DNA from: Propionibacteriaceae bacterium
GTDB taxonomy: Bacteria > Actinomycetota > Actinomycetes > Propionibacteriales > Propionibacteriaceae
DNA length: 32,000 nt
Direction of reading: 5' to 3'
Assembly: GCA_031256725.1 (NCBI GenBank)
Contig: JAIRQE010000019.1
Span: forward strand, 90,001 to 122,000
Shown piece by piece: positions 4,001 through 24,073 of the stretch. The notes under the pieces are model-generated. The model searched no databases. It was not told the DNA's origin and worked only from the letters and a program-made list of their open reading frames with translations. Numbering within the stretch: the stretch's first letter is position 1; each line of letters starts with the position of its first letter. A program made the translations under genes and the position numbers.

Positions 4001-5092
4001 CCACATACCTGGCTTGGATTCACGAGCAAACCCTAACTGCTTGAGTTGAGCCAGACTGACCAGCAGGGAGATCACCGACTCTCCTGTAAGGATTGCCAAC
4101 TCGTCTACAGAAACCGATCGATTCATGGGAAGAGCCTCATGGATTCGTTTCTTGTCCTCAGCAAGATTATCGAAGAGAGTGTCCTGGGCTCTGTGATACT
4201 CAGGGATGGTTGTATCAACAGGATTGAGTACTGAAAGGATTTCCTCTGCAGTACTCACCAGTATGGCCTCACCTCGTCTGATAAGTCGATGCGGGGTAAC
4301 TGACATAGCGGAGGTAACAGGTCCAGGTACAGCCAGTACTTGCCGCCCTAGAGATAGAGCCCAACTCACCGTGTTCTGTGCTCCACTGCGTACAGCTCCT
4401 TCAACAATGACAGTGGCCCTAGGTAGGGCAGCTATCAGCCGATTACGAACAAGAAATCTTGATTTTGACGGATGGCAGGAGGGTGGGTACTCACTGACCA
4501 CAGCCCCCTTCTCTGCCACACCTGTTATCAACCCAGAGTTGCCTGATGGGTAGTAATTCGCCAGGCCGCTAGCCATGACAGCCACTGTTAGTCCATGTGC
4601 TGCCAATGCTCCCCTGTGGGCAGCAGAATCAATCCCGTAGGCGCCTCCAGACACCACAGGAAAACCGCTCTCAGCCACCCCTGAAGCCAGGTCAGCCGTC
4701 ACATGGTCACCATAGGCTGTGCTTGCTCGTGACCCGACTATTGATATTCCTCGACTGAGTTCACTGATTCTTGCTGGACCTTTGACCCACAATCCCAAGG
4801 GTTGCCCACCTCTACCACCCACTGGCTCAGACCAGGAGAGATCCGTCAGCCCTACTGGCCATTCCTCATCACCAGGTATGACGAATCGCGCACCGATTGC
4901 TATGGTGTGGCGAGAAATCTCTTCCGGTTTCACCTCTGCGGCACGTTGAGCCATTGCTGTTCGCCTCCGACCTGAACGCAGGTGTTCCCAGACCTCCACT
5001 GCGCCCTGTTCCTCAATGAGCTTCATCAGGGCAGGGTCTCCCCCATCCTGACAGGCAGCCAAACCCATCCTCGCTGTTCTCTCATCTATCAT
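3980..5092 (-). CDS. dprA: DNA-processing protein DprA
   Basis: 370 aa with the SGGAYGIDSAAHRGAL, VVSEYPP and FLVRNRLIAAL motifs of the DprA Rossmann-like domain. Its ATG overlaps the upstream gene's TGA (ATGA) at 5089-5092. Confidence 0.92.
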   Translation of the reverse strand: MIDERTARMGLAACQDGGDPALMKLIEEQGAVEVWEHLRSGRRRTAMAQRAAEVKPEEISRHTIAIGARFVIPGDEEWPVGLTDLSWSEPVGGRGGQPLGLWVKGPARISELSRGISIVGSRASTAYGDHVTADLASGVAESGFPVVSGGAYGIDSAAHRGALAAHGLTVAVMASGLANYYPSGNSGLITGVAEKGAVVSEYPPSCHPSKSRFLVRNRLIAALPRATVIVEGAVRSGAQNTVSWALSLGRQVLAVPGPVTSAMSVTPHRLIRRGEAILVSTAEEILSVLNPVDTTIPEYHRAQDTLFDNLAEDKKRIHEALPMNRSVSVDELAILTGESVISLLVSLAQLKQLGFARESKPGMWSALKEK

Positions 5093-6621
5093 TGTGGATT
5101 CTCCTGTCCCTGTCTCAGAGCTAATGCCAGCGCTAGATGATCCCCACTGGGACGATCTGCTTCAAGTAGGTCAGCCACCGTCCACGCAACTTTGAGTACC
5201 TTGTCCACTCCACGCGCGGACAGACTCCCGTTGATCACAGCCGAATCGACCATCCCCATGCCTGTGGGCAATGGAAGTTCTTTGCGGACAAACCTCCCAG
5301 GCAATTCCGCATTCGTGGTCCATGTAGTATTTCGGAGACGATCCGACTGGCGAATCCTGGCGGCCTGTACACGCTCAGCAACTGTGAGAGAACTGTCAAC
5401 ATCCATGGACTGCTTATCAGCCAAGCATTGTCTGACTGGAAGAATCCGCGATTGGATATCAATACGATCCAGGATCGGCCCCGAGACTCGTGCCCCGTAT
5501 TTTCGGATCGCCATGGGTGTACACGTACACTTACTCCTCGGCGTTGACGCCAAGCCACATGGACAAGGATTCGCGGCTAAAACAAGTTGAAAACGGGCTG
5601 GATACTTCACTGAAAGTTCGCAACGCCCAAGGATGATCTCCCCCAGTTCCAAGGGAGTACGCATTGCCTCTAAGGCCTGAGTTGAGAATTCGGGGGCCTC
5701 ATCAAGGAAGAGAACTCCTCGATGGGCAAGGGAGACCGCACCAGGACGAGCAATCCGAGCTCCACCGCCTATGAGGGAAGCCAAGGACGCTGAATGGTGA
5801 GGGGCTGAGTAGGGAGGCCGTACTGGAAGAGAATCAATAGACAGATCCACTAGCGAATGGATGGCCGCAACCTCCATCGCCTCCCGAACACTCAAATCAG
5901 GAAGAATCGATGGAAGACATGAAGCCAAGAGAGTCTTTCCCACCCCTGGCGGACCATGGAAGTACAAATGATGTCGCCCAGCGGCAGCCACCTCCAAAGC
6001 GAATCGGGCTTCAGACAAACCCACAACATCCTTGAGATCAGGAGACGCCGAAACCTCGGATGGGCCCGGCACCTCCGCGATGGCATCCACCCCAGACTCC
6101 CCGTTAAGAACCTCAATGAGATCCTGGATATTCCTCACTCCATGAACGGTGAGACCTTCAACCAATCGAGCTTCATTCAACTGGGAAACGGGCACAACCG
6201 CACGTTCGATCCCCACACGTCTTACTCCCAACAAAGCCGGCAGCACTCCACGAACAGGATGAACCTTTCCATCCAGTCCCAGTTCCCCAAAGAGAACAAT
6301 CTCTTCCAAGACTGACGGGTGAATCACCCCTTCAGCCGCCAGTACTGCCGCAGCGATACCCAGGTCATAATGGGATCCCGCCTTCGGCAGACTCGCAGGA
6401 GTGAGGTTGATCGTCAGCACCTGAGGGGGCCAACTAAATCCCGCGCTCAATACTGCTGCCCGGCATCTCTCTTTAGCTTGGGTAAGAGCAGCATCAGGTA
6501 AGCCCACCATTGTCGTCCTTGGTAACCCCGATCCAGTCCATGCTTCAATGGTGACCACCATGGCTTCCATCCCCAGCAAGGCCACCGATTGGGACCTAGC
6601 TATCCCCCATACAGATGTCAT
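5089..6621 (-). CDS. YifB/ComM family Mg-chelatase-like AAA+ ATPase
   Basis: 510 aa with an N-terminal Lon-protease-like (ChlI N) region. Walker A is GPPGVGKT, Walker B is VLFLDEAPEF, and the ANPCPCG motif is present. There is an ATGA overlap with yraN at 6618-6621. Confidence 0.92.
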   Translation of the reverse strand: MTSVWGIARSQSVALLGMEAMVVTIEAWTGSGLPRTTMVGLPDAALTQAKERCRAAVLSAGFSWPPQVLTINLTPASLPKAGSHYDLGIAAAVLAAEGVIHPSVLEEIVLFGELGLDGKVHPVRGVLPALLGVRRVGIERAVVPVSQLNEARLVEGLTVHGVRNIQDLIEVLNGESGVDAIAEVPGPSEVSASPDLKDVVGLSEARFALEVAAAGRHHLYFHGPPGVGKTLLASCLPSILPDLSVREAMEVAAIHSLVDLSIDSLPVRPPYSAPHHSASLASLIGGGARIARPGAVSLAHRGVLFLDEAPEFSTQALEAMRTPLELGEIILGRCELSVKYPARFQLVLAANPCPCGLASTPRSKCTCTPMAIRKYGARVSGPILDRIDIQSRILPVRQCLADKQSMDVDSSLTVAERVQAARIRQSDRLRNTTWTTNAELPGRFVRKELPLPTGMGMVDSAVINGSLSARGVDKVLKVAWTVADLLEADRPSGDHLALALALRQGQENPQ

Positions 6622-6992
6622 AATCGTACCGCCCGCGCGTGAGTAATGGAGGCCTTCTTCCCTGGCTCAGCAAGGATCCCAATGGCATCAATCCTCACTC
6701 GGTCGTACCCCGCCTCATGGGTCACCATCCACATACATGCAAGGCGATGAAGACGTCGAAGCTTCTCGATTGTTATTGCCTCAAGTGGCTGCCCAAATCC
6801 CACCCCTGACTTGGCCTTGACTTCGCAAAACACAAGAGTACCCCGCGACGAGGTGGGATCGACAGCAATGATGTCGATCTCGCCAACTCGGCTATATCGC
6901 CAGTTTCTTTCCAAGATTTTCCACCCCAGATTTTCAAGGTACACAGTGGCCAGGTCTTCGCCCTTTTTTCCTATCGACCTACGCTTGTCCAT
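6618..6992 (-). CDS. yraN: YraN family (UPF0102) endonuclease-like protein
   Basis: 124 aa with GEDLA..YL...G..IL.RNWR, GEIDIIA and FCEVKA motifs of the YraN/UPF0102 family. It sits in the conserved position upstream of yifB-dprA. Confidence 0.88.
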   Translation of the reverse strand: MDKRRSIGKKGEDLATVYLENLGWKILERNWRYSRVGEIDIIAVDPTSSRGTLVFCEVKAKSGVGFGQPLEAITIEKLRRLHRLACMWMVTHEAGYDRVRIDAIGILAEPGKKASITHARAVRL

Positions 6993-7271
6993 ATTTCACC
7001 TCCACGTGAACCATGGGCGTACACAAGAAGAGGTTGTCATCTATCCAAAGGTCACGGGTACCTCAAAAAACTATCCACAGATTCACCGATTCTCAGCATT
7101 TCCTAGAATCAAGGACTGTTGCTTCTTGTTTTTGATTCTGGATCCTGCGACTTCACGCAGGATGACAGTGGATACCACAGGATGACAATGCCCGAACCCC
7201 ATCAGCCTGTACGGCACAGAATCCAGAACCGTCTGCGCGCAGTGCAGGCTTCATCGCAGAATCCAGAGTGT

Positions 7272-8283
7272 CTACCCCAATTCCCGGGATCTCATGAACA
7301 CATCCAAAGACTCTTTCAAGATCGCCCGAGCCATCGGCAAAGCCACAACAGGCAGAAGTACCAAAGCAGGAATGAAGGTTTGAGCGTAATCACCCGCAGT
7401 TAGTTCCGTGTTGATGTGGAACCAAACCTCCGAGATTCTCCAGGCAATGTAGTACGCCGTCGCAGCGCCAATAGGGATGGCCACAATCATCGCCAGGATT
7501 CCCAGAATCCAGGTCTCAGTCAGGATCGTCGCCACGACCACCCGATCCCTAAAACCCAGACTCCTCAACAACTGATAATCAGGAGCCCTCTTGGCAACGG
7601 TATACCCCAAGCAAGCCAACACGAATAGCAGGCCAACTCGGCGGCAAACGCGCACCCAACCATCCAGATAATCTCCCCGGATGGCGTTTCCGACCCGAGA
7701 CCCGTCGAATAGCATCCAAGGGGGTCATCCGACTTACCTGTACTGCTGCATAGATCGCAGCCCCACTGAACACAACTGCCACCGCAACCGCAGCCACCCA
7801 CACATAGAAAGCCGTAAGGTGGATTTCAGCGATAGGCAGCCCCACCGAATAGGCAAACTCAGTAATAAACAGCTGGGCTAGAAGGTACCCCAGCCCAATA
7901 CCCAAGCCCACAGACACCACAGCCAATCCCACGATGATCACCATGAATGCTCGCACCAGACTTCCTGCGGTGTACCCCAAGGTCATGAGTACACCCAAGG
8001 CCCATCGTTCCTTAGCCAACCATTGAGCCAAAAGAAAGAAGGTCACAAACACTGAAGACAGCCCAGTCACCCCAACGATCACTGGAACAACCGTTGCAAA
8101 CGCCGCCAGATTCTTCTCCAGGTACAAGGAGGAAAACTGTTCATCGGAGGCTAATGCATAGGCCTGACTCAGATGATGGTCACCAGCATAATCAAGGATC
8201 TCCTGGCGTACCTTGTCAAGGTCCTCGGCAGTGGAACGGATCAGAACAGAGTTGAACAGCCTACCCGGAGGATGCCCCAACAT
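7272..8283 (-). pseudogene. decayed FtsX-type ABC permease (N-terminally truncated and frameshifted, two ORF fragments 7579-8283 and 7272-7715)
   Basis: Two overlapping ORFs in different frames each carry FtsX-like TM2-TM4 sequence (...SRMTPLDAIRRV at the end of fragment 1; LRSLGFRDR.. plus TM helices in fragment 2). Fragment 1 begins inside what looks like an extracytoplasmic domain, with no TM1. Fragment 2 lacks its own TM1 and extracytoplasmic domain. Confidence 0.55.
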
Positions 8284-8455: not shown

Positions 8456-11400
8456 GTGCTTCATCTAGAGGATGTCCGAAAAACATATCGAACAGGAAGT
8501 TTCATTCAGCAAGCTCTTGACGGTGTCACCATGACCTTCCGCGACAATGAGTTTGTCGCGATTCTTGGCCCCTCAGGCTCTGGCAAAACCACCATGCTCA
8601 ATATCGTTGGTGGTTTGGATCACTGCGATTCTGGCAACCTGGTCATTGATCAGGTATCAACCAAGGAGTACACAGATCGCGACTGGGACACTTATCGCAA
8701 TAACCGTATCGGCTTCGTCTTCCAGAACTACAACCTCATCCCCCACCAAAGCGTTTTGGCGAATGTTGAACTGGCGCTAACCCTATCGGGAGTCTCCAAG
8801 GCTGAAAGGTCTGAGCGGGCCCGCCAGGCCCTTGAGCAAGTCGACCTCCTTGAACATATCCATAAACTCCCCAATCAGCTCTCAGGTGGTCAGATGCAGC
8901 GTGTGGCCATTGCACGCGCATTGATCAACGACCCCGAGATCCTTCTTGCCGATGAGCCCACTGGCGCCTTGGATTCCAAGACTGGCGTCCATGTTATGAA
9001 CCTTCTCCAGGGGATCGCCAAAGAGCGACTGGTGATCATGGTGACCCACAACCCTGAGTTAGCTGCTGAGTACGCCACACGTACGATCTCCCTGCGTGAC
9101 GGAAAGGTTGTCAACGATACCAATCCCTATAGACAACCCAAGAAGGGCCGTGATGCAAAGGAGGCCCACCGTACTGCGATGAGCTTCCTCACCGCCATCG
9201 CTTTAAGCTTCAAGAACCTGCTGACGAAGAAGGGCCGTACACTCATGACGAGTTTCGCAGGCTCTATCGGGATCACGGGAATCGCGGCCATCCTTGCTTT
9301 GACTAATGGGGTCAACGCCTATATCCGTGGGGTTGAGGAGAATACGCTCTCCTTGTACCCACTGTCGATCAGTACCCAGGGAATCGACCTGAGTTCGATG
9401 CTCTCCATGGGAAGCACTATCAGCCAGGGTGCCGCCGAGAAGGGCGATGCTGATCTCTACGAAGTCAAGATGATATCGAAGATGTTTGAGGAAGTCGGAT
9501 CCAATGATCTTGAGTCCCTCAAAACCTATCTCGACTCCCCAGAATCAGACATCGATTCCTATGTCAAAGCGATTCAGTACAACTACAACATCACTCCGCA
9601 GATTTTCTCCAAGGCTCAAGCCGATACTGTGAAACAAGTGAACCCCAACAACATGTTCTCCTCTTTGGGTTTCTCTGGGGACTCACCCTCATCAATGATG
9701 AGCATGGGAATGACCGCAAATGTTTTTTCCTCACTTCCTGATGATCTGAGCCTTCTTGAAGGGCAGTACGATATCCTCGCTGGCCATTGGCCAGAATCCA
9801 GCCATGAATGCATCCTGGTGGTGACTGAATCTGGTGGAATCTCTGACTTCGTTCTCTATGCTATGGGTCTGCGCGATCCAGCTGAACTCGACAAAATGAT
9901 CGAGGATATGGCGGAGAACAACCCCGTCACAGTACCCACAGATCGCAAGGTGTTCTCCTATGAGCATCTGTTGAAAGTCACCTTCTCTGTCGTCAACGCC
10001 GTCAACTTCTATGAGTACGACGAGACCTATGAGGTATGGGCAGATCGACGTAACGATGACGAGTGGATGAAGAAGGCAGTACAAAGTGGGGAGACTCTGA
10101 AGGTCGTGGGTATCGTAAGATTCAATCCCAATGCCACTGCTCAAATGCTACGCCCAGGTCTCTACTACCCCACCAGCTTGGTCTACCATCTCATGGATCA
10201 AGCAGGTGATTCGGCGATCGTGAATGAGCAGCTCGACTCCCCCGACGTGAATGTCTTTTCTGGCAAAACATTCGCCTATGAGGCTGAGAATCCCGCGATG
10301 GCTGACTTCGATTTCTCATCCATGTTGAATGTGGATCCCAATGCAATAACCGATATGTTCGCCATGGACTTCTCAGGTATGACGATGCCGAAAATGGACA
10401 ACCTCAGCAACCTTGGATCAACTATGGATATGTCATCAATGTCGGGGAAAATGCCCCCCATGGATCTCAGTGCCATCCTGTCCGACGTTGACATCAAGAT
10501 GGATCCTGATGCTCTTGAGGCCCTCATCACACAAACGATGACCGATTATCTCTCAGACACCCTTTTAGGTACCGCACCTCCGACCGCATCCCCAGGGATA
10601 CCACAGATACCCACAGAATTCTCCACGCAGATTCCTACGTCCCCCCCCACGAGTCTGCCGACATCCTGGCCTACTCTTCCCACTGAGGTACCTACGATAA
10701 ACCAAACTGAATCCGAATCACGTGGACCCGGATCAGAACCCTCTCCAGAAGCGGTGGCTTCTGTACCCTCGGAAACACCTGAGTCGCCAGCGGAAACCGC
10801 GATACAGCTACCAACTTCTATGCCCACTGAGTTTCCAACCTCCGTGCCCAGCGGAATACCCACAGGTCCTCCTACTGGAATGGTTCCAGATGAGAGTTTC
10901 GCAGAATGGTTCACTCAACCTGGCGTACAAGCGCAGTTCATGCAGCGCCTCGTGAACGTTATTAATACTGAGGAAATCAGTCAACAGGTATCTGCGAGCA
11001 TTGCTGAGTCTATGCAAGCGGCCATGCAGTCCATAGTGACTGACATGATGACTAGACTACAAAGTGAGTTAGCGTTAGCACTGAGGGCCACGATGACCCA
11101 GATGACCAACCAGATGTCTGATGCAATGAACTTTGACCCAGACACCATGTCAGAGATCTTCAAGTTCGACATGGACCCAGAAAAGCTGACTGGACTCATG
11201 ATGTCGATGATGAGTAATCAGTCCAACTCCCTAGATGCGAACCTCCGTCAACTGGGGTACGCCAATATGGATATCCCTTACTCTATTGATATCTATCCTT
11301 TAGATTTCGCATCCAAGGAGAAGGTCCTCACCATCCTTGACGGATACAACGATCATATGAACTCCCTTGGTAAGGAGGATCAGGTCATCACCTATACCGA

Positions 11401-11848
11401 CATTGTGGCTACGTTAATGACCTCAGTGACCGACATCATCGACAAGATCTCAACAATACTCGTTGTCTTCGTCTCCATCTCTTTGGTTGTGTCCTCAATC
11501 ATGATTGGTGTCATCACCTTCATCTCAGTCCTGGAAAGACGCAAAGAGATTGGCATCCTAAGAGCCCTTGGAGCATCCAAACGCGACATTGGTAATGTCT
11601 TCAATGCGGAGACTTTGATTGTTGGCTTCGTAGCTGGGTTGATGGGTGTACTCATCACCCTGCTCCTCACACTAATCGTTAATCCGATCTTTTACCTTTT
11701 CACAGATGTGTACAGAATCGCTCGACTGCCTCTCAATGCTGCACTGATTCTGATTGGTGTCTCAATGCTGCTGACCTTCCTCGCGGGTCTCATCCCCAGT
11801 TCAGCAGCCAGTCGTAAGGACCCTGTCGAAGCCCTCCGTAGCGAGTAG
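8456..11848 (+). CDS. MacB-type ABC transporter, fused ATP-binding domain plus single FtsX permease domain with a very large extracytoplasmic insert
   Basis: 1130 aa. GTG start at 8456 is preceded by GGGGAAGGGG. Walker A is GPSGSGKTT, signature is LSGGQMQRVAIARAL, Walker B is LLADEPTGALD. TM1 lies around aa 260-285. The C-terminal FtsX block has ERRKEIGILRALGASKRDI plus three TM helices and the terminal KDPVEALRSE. Confidence 0.9.
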   Translation: MLHLEDVRKTYRTGSFIQQALDGVTMTFRDNEFVAILGPSGSGKTTMLNIVGGLDHCDSGNLVIDQVSTKEYTDRDWDTYRNNRIGFVFQNYNLIPHQSVLANVELALTLSGVSKAERSERARQALEQVDLLEHIHKLPNQLSGGQMQRVAIARALINDPEILLADEPTGALDSKTGVHVMNLLQGIAKERLVIMVTHNPELAAEYATRTISLRDGKVVNDTNPYRQPKKGRDAKEAHRTAMSFLTAIALSFKNLLTKKGRTLMTSFAGSIGITGIAAILALTNGVNAYIRGVEENTLSLYPLSISTQGIDLSSMLSMGSTISQGAAEKGDADLYEVKMISKMFEEVGSNDLESLKTYLDSPESDIDSYVKAIQYNYNITPQIFSKAQADTVKQVNPNNMFSSLGFSGDSPSSMMSMGMTANVFSSLPDDLSLLEGQYDILAGHWPESSHECILVVTESGGISDFVLYAMGLRDPAELDKMIEDMAENNPVTVPTDRKVFSYEHLLKVTFSVVNAVNFYEYDETYEVWADRRNDDEWMKKAVQSGETLKVVGIVRFNPNATAQMLRPGLYYPTSLVYHLMDQAGDSAIVNEQLDSPDVNVFSGKTFAYEAENPAMADFDFSSMLNVDPNAITDMFAMDFSGMTMPKMDNLSNLGSTMDMSSMSGKMPPMDLSAILSDVDIKMDPDALEALITQTMTDYLSDTLLGTAPPTASPGIPQIPTEFSTQIPTSPPTSLPTSWPTLPTEVPTINQTESESRGPGSEPSPEAVASVPSETPESPAETAIQLPTSMPTEFPTSVPSGIPTGPPTGMVPDESFAEWFTQPGVQAQFMQRLVNVINTEEISQQVSASIAESMQAAMQSIVTDMMTRLQSELALALRATMTQMTNQMSDAMNFDPDTMSEIFKFDMDPEKLTGLMMSMMSNQSNSLDANLRQLGYANMDIPYSIDIYPLDFASKEKVLTILDGYNDHMNSLGKEDQVITYTDIVATLMTSVTDIIDKISTILVVFVSISLVVSSIMIGVITFISVLERRKEIGILRALGASKRDIGNVFNAETLIVGFVAGLMGVLITLLLTLIVNPIFYLFTDVYRIARLPLNAALILIGVSMLLTFLAGLIPSSAASRKDPVEALRSE
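10571..10890 (+). repeat. Pro/Thr/Ser-rich low-complexity linker inside the ABC fusion protein
   Basis: Translates to TAPPTASPGIPQIPTEFSTQIPTSPPTSLPTSWPTLPTEVPT...LPTSMPTEFPTSVPSGIPTGPPTG, with recurring (I/L/M)PT(E/S)(F) units. The mirror-image antisense ORF 10546-10914 is an artefact of this composition. Confidence 0.8.
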
Positions 11849-14271: not shown

Positions 14272-15492
14272 TCATCCAGTGATAAGAAGTATGACCAACA
14301 TGAGGTTCAGTACCACGATGGCACCCACAGCGAGCCACGAGATCACAGTGAGCATGGGTTTACTTGCATACTGACCGAGGAACCGACTGCTGGTGTACCT
14401 CACTAAAGGAATCAGAGCGAAAGGTATGCCGAAGCTCAAGACCACCTGACTTAAGACTAAAGCCCAGGTTGGATCGACCCCTATGGCAAGGATGATCAGA
14501 GCAGGTACGAGTGTGATAAGTCTCATGACTATTACTGGTACCTTTCTTTTCAGCAGATCCCTCATGATCGTGACTCCCGCGTAAGCGCCTACAGATGTTG
14601 AGGCCAAGCCTGAGGCAAGTAGACCGATGGCGAACAGTGCCCCCACCACTGGACCGAGATTGGTCTCGATGGCCCGATGTGCGCCCTGGATGGAATCAGT
14701 GCCAGGGACACCGGACAGTGCCGAGGCAGCCAGAACGAGCATGAGGATATTGACACCGCCTGCGAAGAAGAGGGAAACGAGTACCTCCCATCGTGTGGAG
14801 CGAAGAGTTGCTGGCATATCCATGGAGGCCCTGGGTCCATGACGATCCACGGCCAAAGAGGAGTGTGCATAGATCGCATGGGGCATCACTGTGGCTCCCA
14901 GCATTGAGGCAGCCAGAAGTACGGATTCACGTCCAGAAAAACTGGGGATCAGCCCTTGGGCTGCTTGCCCCCACTGTACTCCTGAGACGAAGACCCCAGC
15001 TAAAAACCCGATGGTGATGATCAGGAGCAAGCCGATGATGACACGTTCAAAGGAGCGTTGCCCGCGTTTGGATTGCCAGGCAAGCAGTCCGAAAGAGACC
15101 ACACCGACGATGATCCCTCCAAGGAGAAGGGGTACCCCAAAGAGGATCTCTAAGGCAATAGCCCCTCCAATAACTTCAGCCAAATCAGTCGTGATGGCCA
15201 CGATCTCAGCCTGGGCGAAATAGGCCAGTCGTGTGCTTCGACGGGTACGCTCCCCCAACAGTTTCGACAGACTCTTTCCAGTGACGAGGCCCAGTTTCGC
15301 GGAGAGGTACTGCACGAGCACCGCGATGGTATTTGCAAGAACGAGGACCCAGATGAGCTTGTACCCAAAGCGCGCCCCTGAGGTCAGATTGGCAGCCACA
15401 TTCCCCGGATCCACATATGCAACCGAGGCCACGAATGCTGGCCCCCATAGCCATGCAAGACTGCGGATCCTAGTGGGAGATTTCTGCGCCAT
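14272..15492 (-). CDS. mntH: Nramp-family divalent metal (Mn2+/Fe2+) transporter MntH
   Basis: Contains the YVDPGNVAANL (DPGN) and MPHAIYAHS motifs and many TM segments. The ORF track starts at a TTG (15528); the first ATG is at 15492 (MAQKSPTRIRS...). The start is not resolved. Confidence 0.9.
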   Translation of the reverse strand: MAQKSPTRIRSLAWLWGPAFVASVAYVDPGNVAANLTSGARFGYKLIWVLVLANTIAVLVQYLSAKLGLVTGKSLSKLLGERTRRSTRLAYFAQAEIVAITTDLAEVIGGAIALEILFGVPLLLGGIIVGVVSFGLLAWQSKRGQRSFERVIIGLLLIITIGFLAGVFVSGVQWGQAAQGLIPSFSGRESVLLAASMLGATVMPHAIYAHSSLAVDRHGPRASMDMPATLRSTRWEVLVSLFFAGGVNILMLVLAASALSGVPGTDSIQGAHRAIETNLGPVVGALFAIGLLASGLASTSVGAYAGVTIMRDLLKRKVPVIVMRLITLVPALIILAIGVDPTWALVLSQVVLSFGIPFALIPLVRYTSSRFLGQYASKPMLTVISWLAVGAIVVLNLMLVILLITG

Positions 15493-15596
15493 ATTCTTAG
15501 TCTGTCGTATCCAGTTTTGGTGTGGCAACTAAGTTCCGAGATACACGACTCTAAAATTATTGGCTCTCACCCTGCACATTACTGGTCTCGGTGTAG

Positions 15597-15619
15597 CATC
15601 AATATACCTCATCAATATA
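15597..15619. promoter_or_regulatory. 10-bp direct repeat (catcaatata, 13-bp period) in the mntH / cassette divergent spacer; candidate operator or promoter element
   Basis: catcaatata occurs at 15597-15606 and 15610-15619 within an AT-rich 160-bp divergent intergenic region. No function has been demonstrated. Confidence 0.2.
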
Positions 15620-15687
15620 ACTCTCCGAAATAATCATGGTGATTTATGTTAACATCAGTAATAGTGCGACCAAAGGAGGGATCAGCG

Positions 15688-15957
15688 ATGATTCGCATTG
15701 CCATGGATGTTCTTGAGGGTTTGGCTTCTAACTTGAAGACCATGACTTCGGTGTTGGATGCGGCAGTAGATGGTCCTGCCACAGGTACAGCAACTGGTCA
15801 TGACGGTGTTGATGCTCAGATGGGGGATTTCATACGAGTGTGGCAATCTAGCCGCGAAACAAACATGGATGGCATCAATACCTTGGGTGCGCTCATGACA
15901 TGCACTGTTGAGGGGTTCCGTGATCTAGACGAGCATTATCTCGCAACTCAAAGTTAG
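15688..15957 (+). CDS. small helical WXG100/EspC-like protein (candidate T7SS-type helper or co-substrate)
   Basis: 89 aa from the ATG at 15688, with AAAGGAGGG SD 7 nt upstream (ORF track starts at 15646). The pattern is helix - Gly/Thr/Ala-rich turn (GPATGTATGHDG) - helix, with F..VW in the second helix, as in WXG100-like proteins. There is no canonical WXG. Confidence 0.45.
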   Translation: MIRIAMDVLEGLASNLKTMTSVLDAAVDGPATGTATGHDGVDAQMGDFIRVWQSSRETNMDGINTLGALMTCTVEGFRDLDEHYLATQS

Positions 15958-15963
15958 GGGTTC

Positions 15964-17382
15964 ATGGTGAGAGATATGGAATTTCGCCCGTTGTTAGGCG
16001 ACGTGAACTATCTTCGGAATCGGTATAACACTTACGTGGGATGTGCCATGGACATGACCCGTACGGCCGATAGTGTCGTATTAGCTGTGAGTCAGGATCA
16101 TTCAGGACAAGGATTAGCTGCTGACGCGATTCGAGAACTAGCCACAAATGTTCACACGTCGATTACCATCTCAGGATTGGCCTATCGTGAAGTGGGTCGT
16201 GCCTTAGGTGACTATGCATATGGGTTGGAACAGGCCCAGATAATCGCTGATAGAGCATCGCGCACACTTGGAATACTCACCACTGAACTTCGCCACCTGG
16301 TCACAGTACAATCTCAGAAAGAAAATGCCTACAACGAGGCAAAACGATGGCGAACCTACTACCAGAACCATCCCAATCAGCCTGAGAAGCTCGTGTACTG
16401 GACCCGTGAAACCAAACAACGCTACACCTCATGGATGACCGCACAGGATGCTGTCGCCAGACACAAGAAACTCATCACAGCCCAAGAAGAAGCATGGCGG
16501 GAAGGCAAACAACGCAAGGATGCTGCTGCACGCATAGCAATGGAACGCATCAGCCAAGCAACCCACATGCTCTACAAAAACCAGCAAAGATTCACAACAA
16601 CCGGTCTCACTGCATGGCTGGGAGGATCACCCCTGTTCATTGACCTTGATTGGGAAAAACTGGCCGATTTCTTTGAAAGTCAGTATGAAGCCTTTCTGGA
16701 GTGGTGGGAATACGTATTGTCATCGGTGGCTTATGAGGTCGGTATTGCCGCATACAAATCTTGGATGGTTTATTCCCGCACCAGACAGTCAATTGACATG
16801 ATTCGTTGGTTCGTGATAACTGGGCCCTACATGCAAATCATGAAGAGGGTTTTCACTAGTGAAGAGAAACTTAGACGCATCTCCCGAGAGATTAAAAGGA
16901 TAATGGTTGGACGTCTCCTTCCTTTCGCAACCCTGCCCGTTGAAGTGGCACGCAGGGCCTATACAGGACCTATCGCAACTCTGATGTTACGCAGTGGGTT
17001 GATCGGAAAAATCTCCACTGCCGCCGGGAAAGTTATCCCGGTTGGCAGTGGAGCCCTAGCCATAACCGACGGAGTGTCTCGATTCGTTGACCCTCGTTAC
17101 TCTGGGACCCGCGGTGTTGTGGACCAAGTCATGGGTGGAGTTGAGGTCCTTGGAGGCCTCGGACTGGTTGCCCTTCCTTTCATACCAAATGCGTATGTGG
17201 CGATTGGTACAGCTGTCGCGTTGGGGATTGTGGGTGTGTGGGATTTAAGCAACATCGCCTATGACTGGCTAGAGGAACATCCCGAAGAAGTTATGACCGC
17301 GAGTGTGAAAACCATTCAAGTAACTGTGACTACAGTTCGGACTGTGCGTTTAGCCTGGGAAGTATTCAAAAAAAACCGTTAA
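15964..17382 (+). CDS. candidate T7SS-type (LXG / T7SS-signal-like) effector with glycine-zipper membrane C-terminal domain
   Basis: 472 aa. The N-terminal ~200 aa is helical, with ...RPLLGDVNYLRNR..., a degenerate WxG-like SGQGLAADAI and ALGDYAYGLEQAQIIADRA. This resembles the N-terminal secretion domain of actinobacterial polymorphic toxins. The C-terminus carries hydrophobic Gly-rich helices (MGGVEVLGGLGLVALPFIPNAYVAIGTAVALGIVGVW). It starts 7 nt after the previous gene's stop. Confidence 0.45.
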   Translation: MVRDMEFRPLLGDVNYLRNRYNTYVGCAMDMTRTADSVVLAVSQDHSGQGLAADAIRELATNVHTSITISGLAYREVGRALGDYAYGLEQAQIIADRASRTLGILTTELRHLVTVQSQKENAYNEAKRWRTYYQNHPNQPEKLVYWTRETKQRYTSWMTAQDAVARHKKLITAQEEAWREGKQRKDAAARIAMERISQATHMLYKNQQRFTTTGLTAWLGGSPLFIDLDWEKLADFFESQYEAFLEWWEYVLSSVAYEVGIAAYKSWMVYSRTRQSIDMIRWFVITGPYMQIMKRVFTSEEKLRRISREIKRIMVGRLLPFATLPVEVARRAYTGPIATLMLRSGLIGKISTAAGKVIPVGSGALAITDGVSRFVDPRYSGTRGVVDQVMGGVEVLGGLGLVALPFIPNAYVAIGTAVALGIVGVWDLSNIAYDWLEEHPEEVMTASVKTIQVTVTTVRTVRLAWEVFKKNR

Positions 17383-17415
17383 CCACAACTAGACCACGTA
17401 AAGAATGGAGGAGCG

Positions 17416-18228
17416 ATGAAAAATCGACCTAGTGAAACCCATGTGTTGACGCGAGCCAAACCCGGGGAATTAGTGTTACTCGGAATGCTCACCGATGAAC
17501 AGATCCTGGCTGTCGAAGGACTGGAACTTGCTCAACCGACTGTGCTTCCCTGGCATGAAACCCAACCCGATCCTGAAACCAGGATAGTCACCGCAGCACG
17601 GGCTTTGTTTGCAGCAGGTTTGTTCATTCCTGGAAGTGGCAAAGATGACTCACGTATCAGTGCAGACATGACTGGAATACTGTCTTCTAGGCGTGCCTCA
17701 CCAGTCCTTCTCATTATCGAACGTGAAACTTCAGAATCCCGACGTTGGAGTTATTCCTATCTGTTCAACACTGCTGTCCTAGAGGAACAAGTCAGCGCCG
17801 ATGGATTCCACACTTTCGTTGCACTGTCTACCAGTGATCTTGGAGACCATTTGGTGGGTCTACTTGACCCATTTGATACCGCTGGGAACACTGCCGAGTT
17901 AGGACGATTCACTTCCATCGACGACTTCGACAAAGACAAAGCAAGCTTCCCCATTGTTACTGAAGCAATCGCGGTGTCCACCATGACCCTACTCGACGCC
18001 CAAATCGGGCAAGCAACAACGATCATAGTATTTGCATCCGGAACTGGCGTCGCGATTCTAGAAACCCAGCAAACACCAGACGATGCAAATCAAACCTATG
18101 TGCTTCGTTGTGTATCACGCAAGGACTTGATCGAACTGACCTACCACCTCATCGCAGACTCCCAACTCCCAGACATCCAGACAGGAAATGAAACTGCGCC
18201 CCTCAACGATCCACCCAAGGTGATATAA
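17416..18228 (+). CDS. EspG-like protein (candidate T7SS substrate chaperone)
   Basis: 270 aa, acidic and soluble-looking. GGAGGAG SD lies 5 nt upstream. Length and pattern (LTDEQILAVEGLELAQPTVLPW..., AARALFAAGLF, PVLLIIERE..., GDHLVGLLDP) resemble the EspG family. The assignment is by eye only. Confidence 0.4.
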   Translation: MKNRPSETHVLTRAKPGELVLLGMLTDEQILAVEGLELAQPTVLPWHETQPDPETRIVTAARALFAAGLFIPGSGKDDSRISADMTGILSSRRASPVLLIIERETSESRRWSYSYLFNTAVLEEQVSADGFHTFVALSTSDLGDHLVGLLDPFDTAGNTAELGRFTSIDDFDKDKASFPIVTEAIAVSTMTLLDAQIGQATTIIVFASGTGVAILETQQTPDDANQTYVLRCVSRKDLIELTYHLIADSQLPDIQTGNETAPLNDPPKVI

Positions 18229-19130
18229 TGGGAACCAAAATCGGGACACGACCAACCCGGAAAATGATGAAAATCATCAACGATAACCCCTGGCTCGGCT
18301 CCGTCCTACACGTCGAACCATTCCGCCCCCTAAAACTCTTCGTCACTGGGGCAATCCTCCTGCTCATCGGGCCGTTTCTTTTCCTGGGCACACGGATTAC
18401 CCCGGAATACTGGCTGCTTCTCGAAGCCCTATTCTGGCCGGTGCCACTTATCTTAGCTGGATCACTATACAGATGTCGGCTCGTCATCTGCGAAGGAGGA
18501 GTCCTCATCGGCCCATCAACAATAACGTCAACGGTTGATATGATTCCTTATGATATGGTTTTTTTAATGTCACTAACAGCCGTACAGAACTTCTCACGCT
18601 TCCGACACATGGGAATCGACTGGGGAGAAAATGGGTCCGAACGATGGGGGAAATGGGGAATCGTATTCCGGAGTAGGGTGGGTGTTGTCTGGCTATCAAA
18701 AGAGTCGTTTGGGAAAGACAACCCAGACATCACCGGGGCCAAAACAAAAACCTTCCGTCAACACTGCCAAGACTTCCTAAAATGGAAAAAATACGTTGTG
18801 TATGAGGATGTGGGATATGACATCCCACTCAGTCTGACCGTTTTCGGGACCCGACACCACCCATCCGAAGTGATCACCCACATCCTCCGCGCTGCAGCAG
18901 ACCATGGAGGATGCCCCTGGGCCTTCAGTGTCCCCGCCGCCACAGAAACCCCTGTCACACTCCCACGACGCCAAAAAAAATTCCGACAAGCACTCCCACG
19001 AATCTTCGGCGACATGACACCCCCCACCATCCCACTAAGCGGATTCCAACCAACACACGAACCCCCCACAGAAAACGACCAGTCAAGTCACAACAACAAC
19101 CAACTAGTGCAACCATGGTACCTAGAATAA
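18228..19130 (+). CDS. membrane protein, two N-terminal TM helices plus bacterial PH-like (YdbS/DUF304-like) domain, Pro/Thr-rich tail; candidate immunity protein
   Basis: 300 aa. Its ATG overlaps the upstream TAA by 1 nt (ATAATGG). TM helices are LKLFVTGAILLLIGPFLFLG and YWLLLEALFWPVPLILAGSLY, followed by RLVICEGGVLIGP, which is typical of membrane-anchored bPH domains. An alternative start lies at 18261. Confidence 0.45.
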   Translation: MGTKIGTRPTRKMMKIINDNPWLGSVLHVEPFRPLKLFVTGAILLLIGPFLFLGTRITPEYWLLLEALFWPVPLILAGSLYRCRLVICEGGVLIGPSTITSTVDMIPYDMVFLMSLTAVQNFSRFRHMGIDWGENGSERWGKWGIVFRSRVGVVWLSKESFGKDNPDITGAKTKTFRQHCQDFLKWKKYVVYEDVGYDIPLSLTVFGTRHHPSEVITHILRAAADHGGCPWAFSVPAATETPVTLPRRQKKFRQALPRIFGDMTPPTIPLSGFQPTHEPPTENDQSSHNNNQLVQPWYLE

Positions 19131-20592: not shown

Positions 20593-21360
20593 TTATGCGG
20601 TCTTGCCGTCTCCCCTGAAGAGGGAGGCGATGAGATCGCGGTTGAGTTGGCCAATGGACTCCAAGGGGATCTCCTTGGGGCACACTGAGGCACACTCACC
20701 GATGTTCTGACACCCACCGAAACCATTGGCATCATGGGCTGCGATCATAGCCTTCACACGCAAGCGGCGTTCAGGCTGACCTTGGGGAAGATTCGCCAGG
20801 TGAGTAATCTTCGCAGAGGTGAACAACATCCCGGAACCATTGGGGCAGGCTGCCACGCAAGCACCGCAACCAATACAGGTCGCCACGTCGAAGGCTCGAT
20901 CTGCCTGCCTCTTCGGGGCTGGAGTCGAGTGGGCTTCGGGGGCAGACCCAGTGTTTACCGAGATGAATCCACCGGCCTGGATGATCCGATCGAATGCCGA
21001 GCGATCAACAACGAGGTCCTTGATCACTGGGAAGGCACCCGTCCTCCATGGCTCCACTTCGATGACATCACCATCAGAGAAGCTACGCATATGTAGCTGG
21101 CAGGTGGTCGTCGCAACCGAGGACTCGTAACGCCCATGCGGTGAACCGTTGATCACGATGCCGCACATACCGCAGATACCTTCACGGCAGTCGTAGTCGA
21201 AGGCGACAGGCTCCTCATTCTTGGCTGTCAACTGCTCATTGAGCATGTCGAGCATCTCCAAGAAGCTCGTGTCCTCGGAGACATCATCAAGCTGATAGGT
21301 CACCATGGACCCAGCTGCATCCTTATTGGCTTGGCGCCAAACCTTGAGTGTGATTTTCAC
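20593..21360 (-). CDS. sdhB: succinate dehydrogenase / fumarate reductase iron-sulfur subunit
   Basis: 255 aa with three Cys clusters: [22 protein letters not shown] and [12 protein letters not shown]. Its start overlaps the sdhA stop (21357-21360). Confidence 0.93.
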
Positions 21361-23366
21361 TTGTAACTCCGTTGCTTCAACTCGATGGCCTCGTAGACCA
21401 GAGGTTCCTTATGAAGGACAGGCTTCTGCCCGTCACCTGTGAACTCCCAGGCAGCGACATAAGCGAATTCCTCATCATGACGCAGGGCCTCACCGTCTTC
21501 GGTTTGGGATTCACTGCGGAAGTGCCCACCACAGGATTCATGCCTATGAAGAGCATCGATACACATCAACTCACCGAGATCGATGAAGTCCGCAACCCGA
21601 CCAGCACGTTCGAGAGCCTGATTGAAGTCCTCATTCACTCCAGTGACGCGTACATTGGTCCAATACTCGTCACGCAGGGCGCGAATCTTTTCAATGGCGA
21701 TCTTGAGACCTTCTTCATCACGATCCATCCCGCAGTATTCCCACATGATGGCACCTAGTTCACGGTGGAAGGAATCAACCGAACGATCACCTTGAATGGA
21801 CAACAGTTTCTCGATGCGGTCCTTGGCTTCACGAAGAGCCTCAACTGATGCTGGGGTTGAATCGTCGATAGCCTCGAAAGGACCAGCAGCCAGATAGTCA
21901 TTGATCGTATTCGGCAATACAAAGTACCCATCAGAGAGCCCCTGCATCAAAGCCGAAGCGCCAAGACGGTTGGCACCATGATCAGAGAAGTTGGCCTCAC
22001 CGGTGACAAATAACCCAGTCACAGTGGACTGAAGGTCATAATCAACCCAAAGTCCGCCCATGACATAGTGGACAGCCGGATAGATACGCATGGGAGTCTC
22101 GTAAGGATTCTCACCTGTGATCTGAGCGTACATATCGAAGAGGTTGCCGTAACGAGCAGACACTTCCTTCTTCCCCAGACGCGCAATCGCATCAGCAAAG
22201 TCGAGGTACACCCCACGACGACGCTCAATAGTCTCGCCAGTCTCATGATCAGTCTCTGTGATCGCCGGGCCAACACCGCGACCTTCGTCGCACATGTACT
22301 TGGCTTGACGAGACGCAATATCGCGAGGTACGAGGTTACCGAAAGAGGGATAGATCCTCTCCAGATAATAATCGCGTTCATCCTCTGGAATATCGCGAGG
22401 ATCCTTCTCAGCATCCTCAGGGTTCTTAGGTACCCAAATGCGACCGTCGTTACGCAGGGACTCCGACATCAGCGTCAGTTTGGACTGATGTTCCCCTGTT
22501 ACAGGGATACAGGTCGGATGGATCTGTGTATAGCAGGGGTTACCGAAGTACGCACCCTTACGGTGTGCTCTCCAGTTTGCCGTCACATTGGATCCCATGG
22601 CATTCGTTGAAAGGAAGAAGACGTTGCCATAGCCACCAGTAGCGAGGACCACCGCATCGGCGTACCAAGCCTCGACCTCACCTGTCACCAGGTCGCGGGT
22701 CACGATACCGCGAGCGCGACCATCATGGATGATCACCTCCAACATCTCGTGACGGGAGTGCATGGTGACCGTACCTGCGGCAACCTGACGCTCCAGAGCC
22801 TGATAGGCCCCAATCAGGAGTTGCTGGCCTGTTTGACCGCGGGCATAGAAGGTTCGCTGTACCTGTACCCCACCGAAGGAGCGAGTGTCGAGCAGACCGC
22901 CGTACTCGCGGGCGAAGGGAACCCCCTGGGCCACGCACTGATCGATGATCCCAGCGGAGACCTCAGCCAGACGGTAGACATTGGTTTCACGGGCGCGGTA
23001 GTCGCCACCCTTGACCGTGTCATAGAACAACCTGAAAACCGAGTCGTTGTCGTTACGGTAATTCTTGGCTGCGTTGATACCGCCCTGAGCCGCAATGGAG
23101 TGCGCGCGCCGCGGGCTGTCCTGGAAACAGAAGTTGTGGACGTTGTACCCAGCCTCGCCAAGGGTTGCACCCGCAGCGGCACCGGCTAGGCCCGTACCCA
23201 CAATGATGACGGTCAGCTTGCGGCGGTTCGCCGGGTTGACCAACTTGGCTTCAAACTTGCGCGTCGACCACTTCTTTTCGATGGGGCCAGCTGGAGCCTT
23301 CGTATCACGAATCTCTTCGCCAACCGTGAAGTACGCTTTCGCGGAGGACTTAACTGTCGCTGCCAT
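21357..23366 (-). CDS. sdhA: succinate dehydrogenase / fumarate reductase flavoprotein subunit
   Basis: FAD-binding [13 protein letters not shown], the covalent-FAD His motif [11 protein letters not shown], and HYVMGGL are present. I use the ATG at 23366 (MAATVKSS...), 2 nt after the sdhC stop. The 71-codon upstream extension in the ORF track overlaps sdhC and is rejected. Confidence 0.93.
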
Positions 23367-23368
23367 AG

Positions 23369-24073
23369 TTAGCTCACCATCCCAATTAGTACGGCCACTG
23401 GAGGAAGAATAAAGCCTACAAACAGCAATGCTGCCACGAAATAGGCCAGGGCGTTGAGTACATTGCGTGCCCCGGTGCCAACGTTGGCACCCAAGGTAGT
23501 GAAGGCTGACCAGAAGCCATGCCTCACATGCATACACACTGCGCCAACAAAGATCGCATAGATGAGCACAACCCACCACTGCGAGAAGGCTCCAACAAAC
23601 ATAGAGTACGGGTCTTCAGCGTTAAAGGTATACCCTGTAGTGACCCAACCCACTGTGAACATGAGCAGGTGCAGGAGAAGCAGAGTACCCACAAGGATAC
23701 CCAGCCAACGCATGAACCGAGCCGACAAGGTTTGTTCCTTGCGACGGGTACGTACGTAGCGAGCCCCGCGTCCATGCAGGCTTGCCGCCCACAGAACTGC
23801 CATGCAGTAGATATGTAGTACCAAGCAGGTCAACAGGACGAGCCTGAAGATCCATATGAACCACCCCTGGGGAAGAATGGGGTAGAGGAGATCACCCTTG
23901 AGCCAATGCGCGTAATGGTTGTACTCGGATTGGCCAATGAAGATCTTGAGATTGCCAAACATATGCATGAGAAGGAAAGCGATCAGCACAAGGCCAGTCA
24001 AGGCCATGACGACCTTTTTAACCACCGTGGAACGTATCGCTTCCTGATGCACACTCAAAGATGTAGATGCCAC
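23369..24073 (-). CDS. sdhC: succinate dehydrogenase / fumarate reductase cytochrome b membrane subunit (single large subunit type)
   Basis: 234 aa with about five hydrophobic helices and conserved His residues ([33 protein letters not shown]). It sits first in the sdhCAB order. Confidence 0.85.

Follow-up and report, generated by a model that had tools for sequence, protein, structure and literature searches.

We analysed a 32,000-nucleotide stretch of DNA (hereafter the window) from a Propionibacteriaceae bacterium (GenBank assembly GCA_031256725.1, contig JAIRQE010000019.1, positions 90,001 to 122,000 of the forward strand), with attention to an open reading frame (ORF) of 472 aa at 15964..17382 on the plus strand. 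With some reserve, we favour the reading that this ORF encodes a polymorphic effector of type VII secretion (T7SS; ESX), whose payload is a glycine-rich, marginally hydrophobic helical hairpin of ~95 residues that acts on a cytoplasmic membrane. That reading is carried by the domain architecture of the protein, the modular reuse of its parts, its linkage to two partner genes, the EspG fold of one of the partners and the T7SS neighbourhood of its relatives. An earlier note on this DNA had placed a glycine-zipper, membrane-inserting toxin domain in the C-terminal half of the protein; the observation behind it is real and biologically coherent, but it was mislabelled as a glycine zipper.

Results

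The candidate effector is a modular protein

Both the 472-aa ORF and the three peptides quoted from it in the earlier note (aa 247–270, nt 16702–16773; aa 280–293, nt 16801–16842; and aa 390–426, nt 17131–17241) are present in the window. Public gene calls begin the protein at M5, giving 468 aa, or at a later residue, giving 444 aa, and the N-termini of homologues (M-x-D-x-x-Y/W-x-x-L-T-G-D) agree best with a start at 15964. Exhaustive phmmer searches of a library of 1.8 billion proteins revealed that aa 4–200 and aa ~343–436 match separate sets of proteins, and that a single homologue, P0014, is related over the full length. Word-index searches returned only the protein itself or one fragment; its relatives surfaced exclusively through exhaustive phmmer.

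On the basis of these alignments, the plus-strand ORF begins with a helical targeting domain of ~200 aa (15964..16563) that resembles PF21725 (T7SS_signal) by phmmer and hidden Markov model (HMM) comparison and has LLGD at aa 10–13 as an LxG-like motif. A poorly conserved helical linker or pre-payload region follows (aa 201–342; 16564..16989), which includes the WWEYV... and IRWFV... segments, is alignable only to P0014 (23% identity), and is low in both hydrophobicity and hydrophobic moment. The conserved C-terminal module (C-module; aa 343–436; 16990..17271), delimited by alignments, HMM and composition, is succeeded by a 36-aa amphipathic tail of the TVxTVxxAWxxF type and the stop codon (17272..17382). 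This tail is common to P0005 and the protein from locus L007, while most relatives have a ...GGLFG/S tail instead.

No match to the candidate effector was found in Pfam (E ≤ 1), NCBIfam, PADLOC or the sequences of the PDB. It has no signal peptide, and no enzymatic toxin domain was detected in Pfam, NCBIfam or PADLOC, in agreement with the earlier note, which saw no nuclease, deaminase or ADP-ribosyltransferase motifs. A reading as an anti-phage defence protein was dropped on the negative PADLOC result. Sequence and profile searches of the PDB were likewise empty for the C-module, the N-terminal domain and the EspG-like and membrane protein families described below, the best match being an ESAT-6-like protein with a non-significant E-value of 0.033.

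The C-terminal module is a glycine-rich, marginally hydrophobic hairpin

Gly, Ala and Val make up 43% of aa 343–436, compared with 20–22% of the first two-thirds of the protein, and the only stretch with a Kyte-Doolittle hydropathy above 1.6 spans aa 389–432, bearing out the Gly/Ala/Val-rich hydrophobic stretch reported earlier. The module opens with a Gly-rich lead helix and a polar cap, PxYxGxRGxxD (R383, D387), continues with two Gly/Ala/Val helices, predicted from sequence at aa 389–407 (nt 17128–17184, plus strand) and aa 410–428 (nt 17191–17247, plus strand), and closes with a second polar cap, WxLxNxxxD (W426, N430, D434); the turn between the two helices reads PFIPN in the window copy. 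Residues G370, G381, R383, D387, G391, G398, G424, N430 and D434 are invariant in our alignments. The region matches nine other proteins with unrelated N-termini (phmmer E 1.5e-10 to 2.6e-4, the best match being P0005), and an HMM built without the window copy recovers it at 73.5 bits (E 8e-25). Because it combines matches to unrelated proteins with such a score, the module is, from these comparisons, not a chance feature. The earlier note had assigned the module to the whole C-terminal half; the conserved unit comprises only aa ~343–436, about 95 residues, and a short tail.

The glycine-zipper label was abandoned on motif and spacing statistics. The canonical motif, defined as (G/A/S)xxxGxxxG or GxxxGxxx(G/S/T) (PMC12744356), is absent, and the repeated small-xxx-small spacing described previously amounts to three pairs, no commoner than in composition-preserving shuffles (4.3 ± 1.5). 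Across 13 family members, Gly–Gly pairs at i+4 are depleted (z −1.9) and those at i+6 are enriched (z +4.0), with the caveat that z-scores taken over related sequences overstate their independence.

The claim of stable transmembrane (TM) helices fared no better. Apparent free energies of insertion (ΔGapp, Hessa translocon scale, summed over 19 residues) are +4.3 kcal/mol for helix 1 and +4.1 kcal/mol for helix 2. TM1 of the membrane protein encoded nearby has −0.17 on this scale, and both hairpin helices are therefore marginally hydrophobic; values for the corresponding helices of relatives range from +1 to +4. Nor do the middle segments have the hydrophobic, amphipathic character once ascribed to them. 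With a mean hydrophobicity of ~0.4, a helical hydrophobic moment of 0.14–0.17 and ΔGapp above +5, aa 247–270 and 280–293 are neither TM-like nor amphipathic, owing to their low hydrophobicity and low helical moment. Marginal hydrophobicity, together with the lack of a signal peptide and of an enzymatic domain, would fit a payload that inserts into a membrane after export.

The N-terminal domain is of a T7SS type and follows a gene for a small helical protein

Residues 4–200 match 12 proteins of 123–842 aa with unrelated C-termini, which, judged from their sequences, is the pattern of a polymorphic toxin family. Two of these relatives, P0018 (33.2 bits) and P0023 (27.5 bits), pass the 27-bit gathering threshold of PF21725, which Pfam describes as a putative T7SS secretion signal domain; another three score slightly under that threshold. 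The window N-domain matches P0018 with E 1.4e-4 and P0023 with E 8.1e-4 in library-wide phmmer searches, and an HMM of the 12 relatives from which the window was left out scores it at 143.6 bits (E 6e-45, positions 5–199). The window protein itself has no PF21725 match at E ≤ 1, and none to PF04740 (LXG) at the same cut-off, for which only the relative P0005 gives a sub-threshold score (17.4 bits). Other payloads on this domain, read from the sequences, include HEFGH in P0013 and GWSQGG in P0018. A further conserved hydrophobic C-terminal module (W.K...I..ICDIA..LSLFL.WVP.LG...L) occurs in P0006, P0012, P0016, P0019, P0020, P0022 and P0023, and has the look of another membrane-type payload, unrelated to the C-module, that this T7SS_signal-like domain carries.

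Immediately upstream, an 89-aa ORF (15688..15957, plus strand), whose ATG at 15688 is preceded by an AGGAGG-like ribosome-binding site, encodes a small helical protein that is a candidate Tap/Lap-like targeting factor. Pfam, NCBIfam and PADLOC returned no match for it. It carries a C-terminal FxxxD motif (FRDLD, aa 77–81, nt 15916–15930), the proposed export signal of Lap proteins (PMC12744356). The small proteins encoded upstream of the module genes in L001 and L002 also have FxxxD within their last ~30 residues (at aa 81 of 110 and 76 of 88, compared with 77 of 89 in the window). The window protein is homologous to that of L001, which precedes P0014 (29% identity, E 5e-6), and the L002 protein is otherwise unrelated to it; the small partner thus tracks the N-domain. 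Upstream of the module-bearing P0008, at L021:3657–4004, the small gene encodes a DUF6507 protein (Pfam PF20117), a position that points to DUF6507 as a Tap/Lap-like family of T7SS targeting partners.

The module is linked to an EspG-fold protein and a membrane protein

In the window, the 89-aa ORF, the candidate effector, a 270-aa ORF and a 300-aa ORF lie in this order, tightly spaced or overlapping, and the cluster is flanked by an Nramp gene and a nucleotidyltransferase gene in housekeeping surroundings. GC content across the four-gene cluster (window positions 15000–19000) is 0.49–0.515, compared with a window mean of ~0.53, and contigs of relatives have 57–74% GC; the dip is weakly suggestive of horizontal acquisition of the cluster.

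The 270-aa protein (17416..18228, plus strand), whose family members in linked loci have ~265 aa, is a soluble EspG-fold protein. Its AlphaFold2 model, built from a 5-sequence alignment, has a predicted local distance difference score (pLDDT) of 80.6 and a predicted template-modelling score of 0.77. In a Foldseek search of the PDB the top 15 matches are all EspG1, EspG3 or EspG5 (E 9e-9 to 3e-5, probability 1.00; template-modelling scores of 0.47–0.64 normalised to the query), and the next hit has a score of 0.15. The similarity is not evident in sequence: none of six family members has a Pfam hit, NCBIfam and PADLOC give no match, and the family profile has no PDB sequence hit. On PE-PPE substrates, EspG covers a hydrophobic patch, and the toxin EsaD of Staphylococcus aureus is chaperoned by EsaE, which has the EspG fold (PMC11217815).

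The gene for the EspG-like protein follows the C-module closely. Starting from the EspG-like gene, a C-module ORF adjoins in 12 of 12 distinct loci with upstream DNA; starting from the toxin side, an EspG-like gene lies within two genes downstream in 7 of 7. When both samplings are merged for overlap, linkage holds in 16 of 16 distinct loci whose flanking DNA was long enough, counts that rest on short metagenomic contigs. In L002, homologues of the 270-aa (46% identity) and 300-aa (27% identity) proteins come directly after P0005. Locus L001, from a metagenome-assembled genome of Propionibacteriaceae, has both partners in swapped order along with the homologous small upstream gene. L005, where the N-domain is unrelated and WXG100-like, has the closest relatives of both window partners, the EspG-like protein (48% identity) and the membrane protein (35% identity), whereas L001 shares its N-domain with the window yet has more distant partners. 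On this evidence the cassette is decoupled from the N-domain, since its partners are nearest those associated with another N-domain. As the EspG-fold gene tracks the C-module rather than the N-domain, we infer that its product binds the hydrophobic C-module, and consider it a candidate payload-linked chaperone or cytoplasmic neutraliser.

The 300-aa ORF (18228..19130, plus strand), whose ATG and the EspG-like gene's stop codon overlap, encodes a candidate membrane immunity protein, proposed on TM energetics and linkage. It has one clear TM segment (aa 37–55) and a weaker hydrophobic segment (aa 62–80), and its family is marked by the motifs NPWLG..R..E.FRP and RLVICxxG. Given seven K/R residues at the N-terminus, the two termini probably both face the cytoplasm. 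Searches of Pfam, NCBIfam, PADLOC and the PDB gave no match for this protein. Its family is detected in most of the loci, with homologues in L001, L002, L005, L007, L010, L013, L018, L022 and L023; a 160-aa gene product downstream in L004 was considered as a member of the family and rejected. Locus L007 has an extra partial copy (L007:2143–2514; HMM positions 4–107) right after the full one, and immunity genes are typically duplicated in tandem in this way. Genes for flagellar export (FliP/Q/R, FlhB) and for a ParE toxin lie on that contig too.

Relatives reuse the module, in two loci directly after T7SS genes

The C-module is found on WXG100-like N-domains in P0007, P0011, P0015 and P0021 and in L004, L005, L010, L013–L015 and L017, on a weakly LXG-like N-domain in P0005, and on other helical N-domains in P0008–P0010, L018 and L020. 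Two loci, L023 and L024, have the module-bearing gene directly behind genes for a ~1480-aa ATPase with FHA and FtsK_SpoIIIE domains and one or two WXG100 proteins, and in L002 a WXG100 gene lies a short way downstream. Within Actinomycetota, T7SS ATPases that bear FHA domains are found in the T7SSd subtype, reported from Olsenella and Bifidobacterium (PMC11217815). Most copies of the module have no T7SS core gene anywhere near them and lie among housekeeping genes.

Downstream of its FHA+FtsK_SpoIIIE ATPase and WXG100 genes, L024 (1–8972; compare L023:1–6566) has three ORFs with WXG100-like N-domains, bearing the Gly-rich module (4001–4972), a Peptidase_C2 domain (6138–7310) and another payload (from 8275). 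From its sequence, L024 thus holds an array of polymorphic effectors, and its host is a high-GC actinobacterium. At L004:5306–7154, the module gene seems to be frameshifted inside its GWRGVG cap (ORFs 5306–6049 and 5677–6351) and the EspG-like gene downstream is intact; this could reflect toxin decay with the partner kept, or an assembly error. The L004 locus adjoins an XFP phosphoketolase gene.

Other genes in the window

An unusually long fusion of 1130 aa (8456–11848, plus strand) combines an N-terminal ABC ATPase domain with a C-terminal FtsX-like permease domain, and a separate 234-aa ORF with an FtsX domain lies just upstream on the opposite strand (7579–8283, minus). Another 234-aa ORF (23369–24073, minus strand), with no Pfam match, overlaps the annotated start region of an ORF for an SdhA-like flavoprotein (21357–23579); either the GTG start of the latter has been placed too far upstream, or the overlapping ORF is an uncharacterised membrane-anchor subunit.

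Discussion

Taken as a T7SS effector system, the four-gene cluster lends itself to the following scenario. The N-terminal domain of ~200 aa and the 89-aa FxxxD protein would pair to form a rod-like T7SS export signal, and the EspG-fold protein would shield the C-module in the cytoplasm of the producer, keeping it soluble and harmless until export. The hairpin, whose hydrophobicity may be too weak for capture by the Sec/YidC route, could then insert into a membrane from outside, where it might oligomerise and dissipate ion gradients. The co-encoded small membrane protein would protect the producer and its kin. The part of the earlier note that described a secreted protein with a membrane-inserting toxin module of the type VII kind is supported by the T7SS-type N-domain, the modular reuse, the T7SS neighbourhood of relatives and the linkage to partners; the zipper is the part that was lost.

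Several points weigh against this scenario. No T7SS core gene lies within the 32-kb window, where the other genes are housekeeping ones. The window C-module is the most divergent copy of its family, without the GPVG turn and with E394, P405 and P408 in or near helix 1; its hairpin helices are only ~17–19 residues long, and between aa 383 and 434 it has no match to either form of the zipper motif and no GxxxG. The single-sequence AlphaFold2 model of the candidate effector is unreliable (pLDDT 45), so the hairpin is deduced from sequence only. The EspG-like family is rare, with only 5 sequence clusters at word-index sensitivity, and its member here could be a plain targeting chaperone instead. 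Similarly, the membrane protein may have a role other than immunity, and its family is missing or undetected in L014, L015, L017, L021 and L024.

An alternative that we consider improbable is that the protein is a non-toxic membrane factor exported by the T7SS into the producer's own envelope, for example as a channel, a translocon, a helper in the export of other substrates, or a signalling or conjugation factor, with the EspG-fold protein as its secretion chaperone and the membrane protein as a docking or assembly partner. The payload has no enzymatic domain, and in L023 and L024 the first gene behind those for the T7SS ATPase and WXG100 proteins is the module-bearing one, a place where machinery and accessory genes are also found. 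There are precedents as well: pore-forming Esx proteins that aid toxin export are cited in a recent study of actinobacterial toxins (PMC13444075), and a glycine-zipper T7SS 'toxin' of Bacillus subtilis has been proposed to act as a signal (bioRxiv 10.1101/2023.08.02.551746). However, most copies, the window's included, are distant from T7SS core genes and lie among housekeeping genes, and the patchy, rare distribution of the family speaks against a core function. The module has also been swapped among at least three unrelated N-domains and shares an array with a peptidase payload, behaviour that is seen in polymorphic toxins, and in L004 the relative is apparently frameshifted while its partner is intact.

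We think it doubtful that aa ~215–472 instead form a soluble, all-helical pore-forming domain, like those of colicins, the diphtheria toxin T-domain or Bcl-2, with the hairpin as a buried core that is released when the bundle unfolds on a membrane. Near the C-terminus, pore-forming colicins place a single amphipathic helix after an Ala/Gly/Val-rich hairpin, a layout that the hairpin and amphipathic helix of the candidate effector resemble. Its C-terminal half is predicted by AlphaFold2, at low confidence, to be helical throughout, and marginal hydrophobicity would be compatible with such a bundle, as would toxicity. On the other hand, no match to Pfam Colicin (PF01024) or to any other pore-forming family was found at E ≤ 1, only ~95 aa are conserved and the region preceding them is variable or of low complexity, and, as the EspG-fold partner is obligatory, the hairpin would seem to need a shield from another protein instead of burying itself.

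Finally, we give very little credence to a resident membrane protein of the producer, with a two-helix anchor inserted by Sec/YidC and no link to secretion or toxicity: two adjacent hydrophobic helices (Kyte-Doolittle up to 1.9) do lie near the C-terminus, a membrane-protein gene adjoins and the window has no T7SS genes, but ΔGapp is about +4 for both helices against −0.17 for the true TM segment next door, the N-domain falls in a T7SS_signal-related family, the EspG-fold partner is cytosolic, relatives adjoin T7SS ATPase and WXG100 genes, and no homology to a resident, non-toxin membrane-protein family, which the earlier note had named in advance as refuting its reading, was found.

If the protein is indeed a membrane-targeting T7SS effector, such toxins would reach beyond Bacillota and would not require the canonical zipper motif, and EspG-fold proteins would gain a payload-specific role. 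Antibacterial T7SS toxins of Actinomycetota have been recognised only recently, and a function has yet to be assigned to roughly half of their payloads (PMC13444075). The present locus provides a concrete payload family for this group, with a module of ~95 aa, invariant R/D and N/D caps, and two dedicated partner families. None of the three families (C-module, EspG-like and membrane protein) is in Pfam or NCBIfam, and the literature that we consulted on PF21725 and on EspG-like proteins with toxins contains no description of this cassette. More tentatively, these loci may represent a new, phylum-wide actinobacterial T7SS toxin system, in which a payload-dedicated EspG-fold holdase or antitoxin buries a non-zipper hairpin with heptad-spaced glycines, and a largely cytoplasmic protein with one or two TM segments confers immunity. 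If so, the shielding of membrane-inserting segments may be an ancestral task of EspG-type chaperones.

Comparison with known systems

Pore-forming colicins and membrane-targeting effectors of type VI secretion (T6SS) resemble the candidate effector in having a marginally hydrophobic, Ala/Gly/Val-rich hairpin near the C-terminus and an adjacent gene for a small membrane protein that is a plausible immunity factor. They differ from it in export route, and no homology to them was detected in Pfam; the conserved unit here is much smaller, and a cytosolic chaperone-like partner is added.

The Eat loci of Actinomycetota are made up of EatA, TapA1/A2 and EatI and depend on ESX-4 (Benedict et al. 2026, PMC13444075). 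In that paper, loci that combine Tap proteins with helical-domain toxins are reported to be widespread in Actinomycetota, and 47% of their payloads have no predicted function. Like the Eat loci so described, the window cluster has a small, helical Tap-like gene upstream, an N-domain that is helical and elongated, a payload that varies, and a candidate protective gene downstream. The EatA payload, by contrast, is a GH183 arabinanase that is countered by a lipoprotein inhibitor, where we find a hydrophobic hairpin with EspG-fold and membrane partners, and an EspG-type partner is not described for Eat loci in the text that we consulted.

The 270-aa protein shares with EspG of the PE-PPE-EspG systems, and with EsaE, its fold (Foldseek E 9e-9, template-modelling score ~0.6), a cytosolic location and a gene position beside that of a T7SS substrate. 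EspG attaches to its PE-PPE clients at the tip of their targeting bundle, whereas the 270-aa protein co-varies with the payload and not with the targeting domain. It also lacks a Pfam or PDB match to EspG at the sequence level, and occurs in organisms and loci without PE/PPE genes.

By analogy, EsxX of S. aureus is the nearest case with experimental backing, in which the soluble ExiAB proteins bind a hydrophobic motif of the toxin in the cytoplasm and the membrane proteins ExiCD block its external action (PMC12744356). EsxX, TelE and TspA are T7SSb LXG toxins of Bacillota with C-terminal glycine-zipper domains that depolarise membranes (PMC12744356, PMC10434224). As in these toxins, the window cluster combines a helical N-terminal T7SS targeting domain and a small helical upstream partner with FxxxD with a short, Gly-rich, hydrophobic C-terminal payload that has no enzymatic domain. 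There is no detectable sequence homology between the two systems. Unlike the Bacillota toxins, the loci described here are of an actinobacterial type (53–74% GC), with N-domains that are PF21725-like or WXG100-like rather than Pfam LXG, and with payloads that lack (G/A/S)xxxGxxxG, space their glycines at i+6 rather than i+4, and form a predicted two-helix hairpin with R/D and N/D caps. As with ExiAB and ExiCD, the genes downstream encode a soluble partner and a membrane protein; the fold of the soluble partner is that of EspG, compared with the DUF5085/GyrI-like SHS2 fold in the EsxX system, and the membrane partner has one or two TM segments compared with six. If the EspG-fold and membrane proteins do shield and neutralise the hairpin, the cassette and ExiAB/ExiCD would have converged on the same function through unrelated folds.

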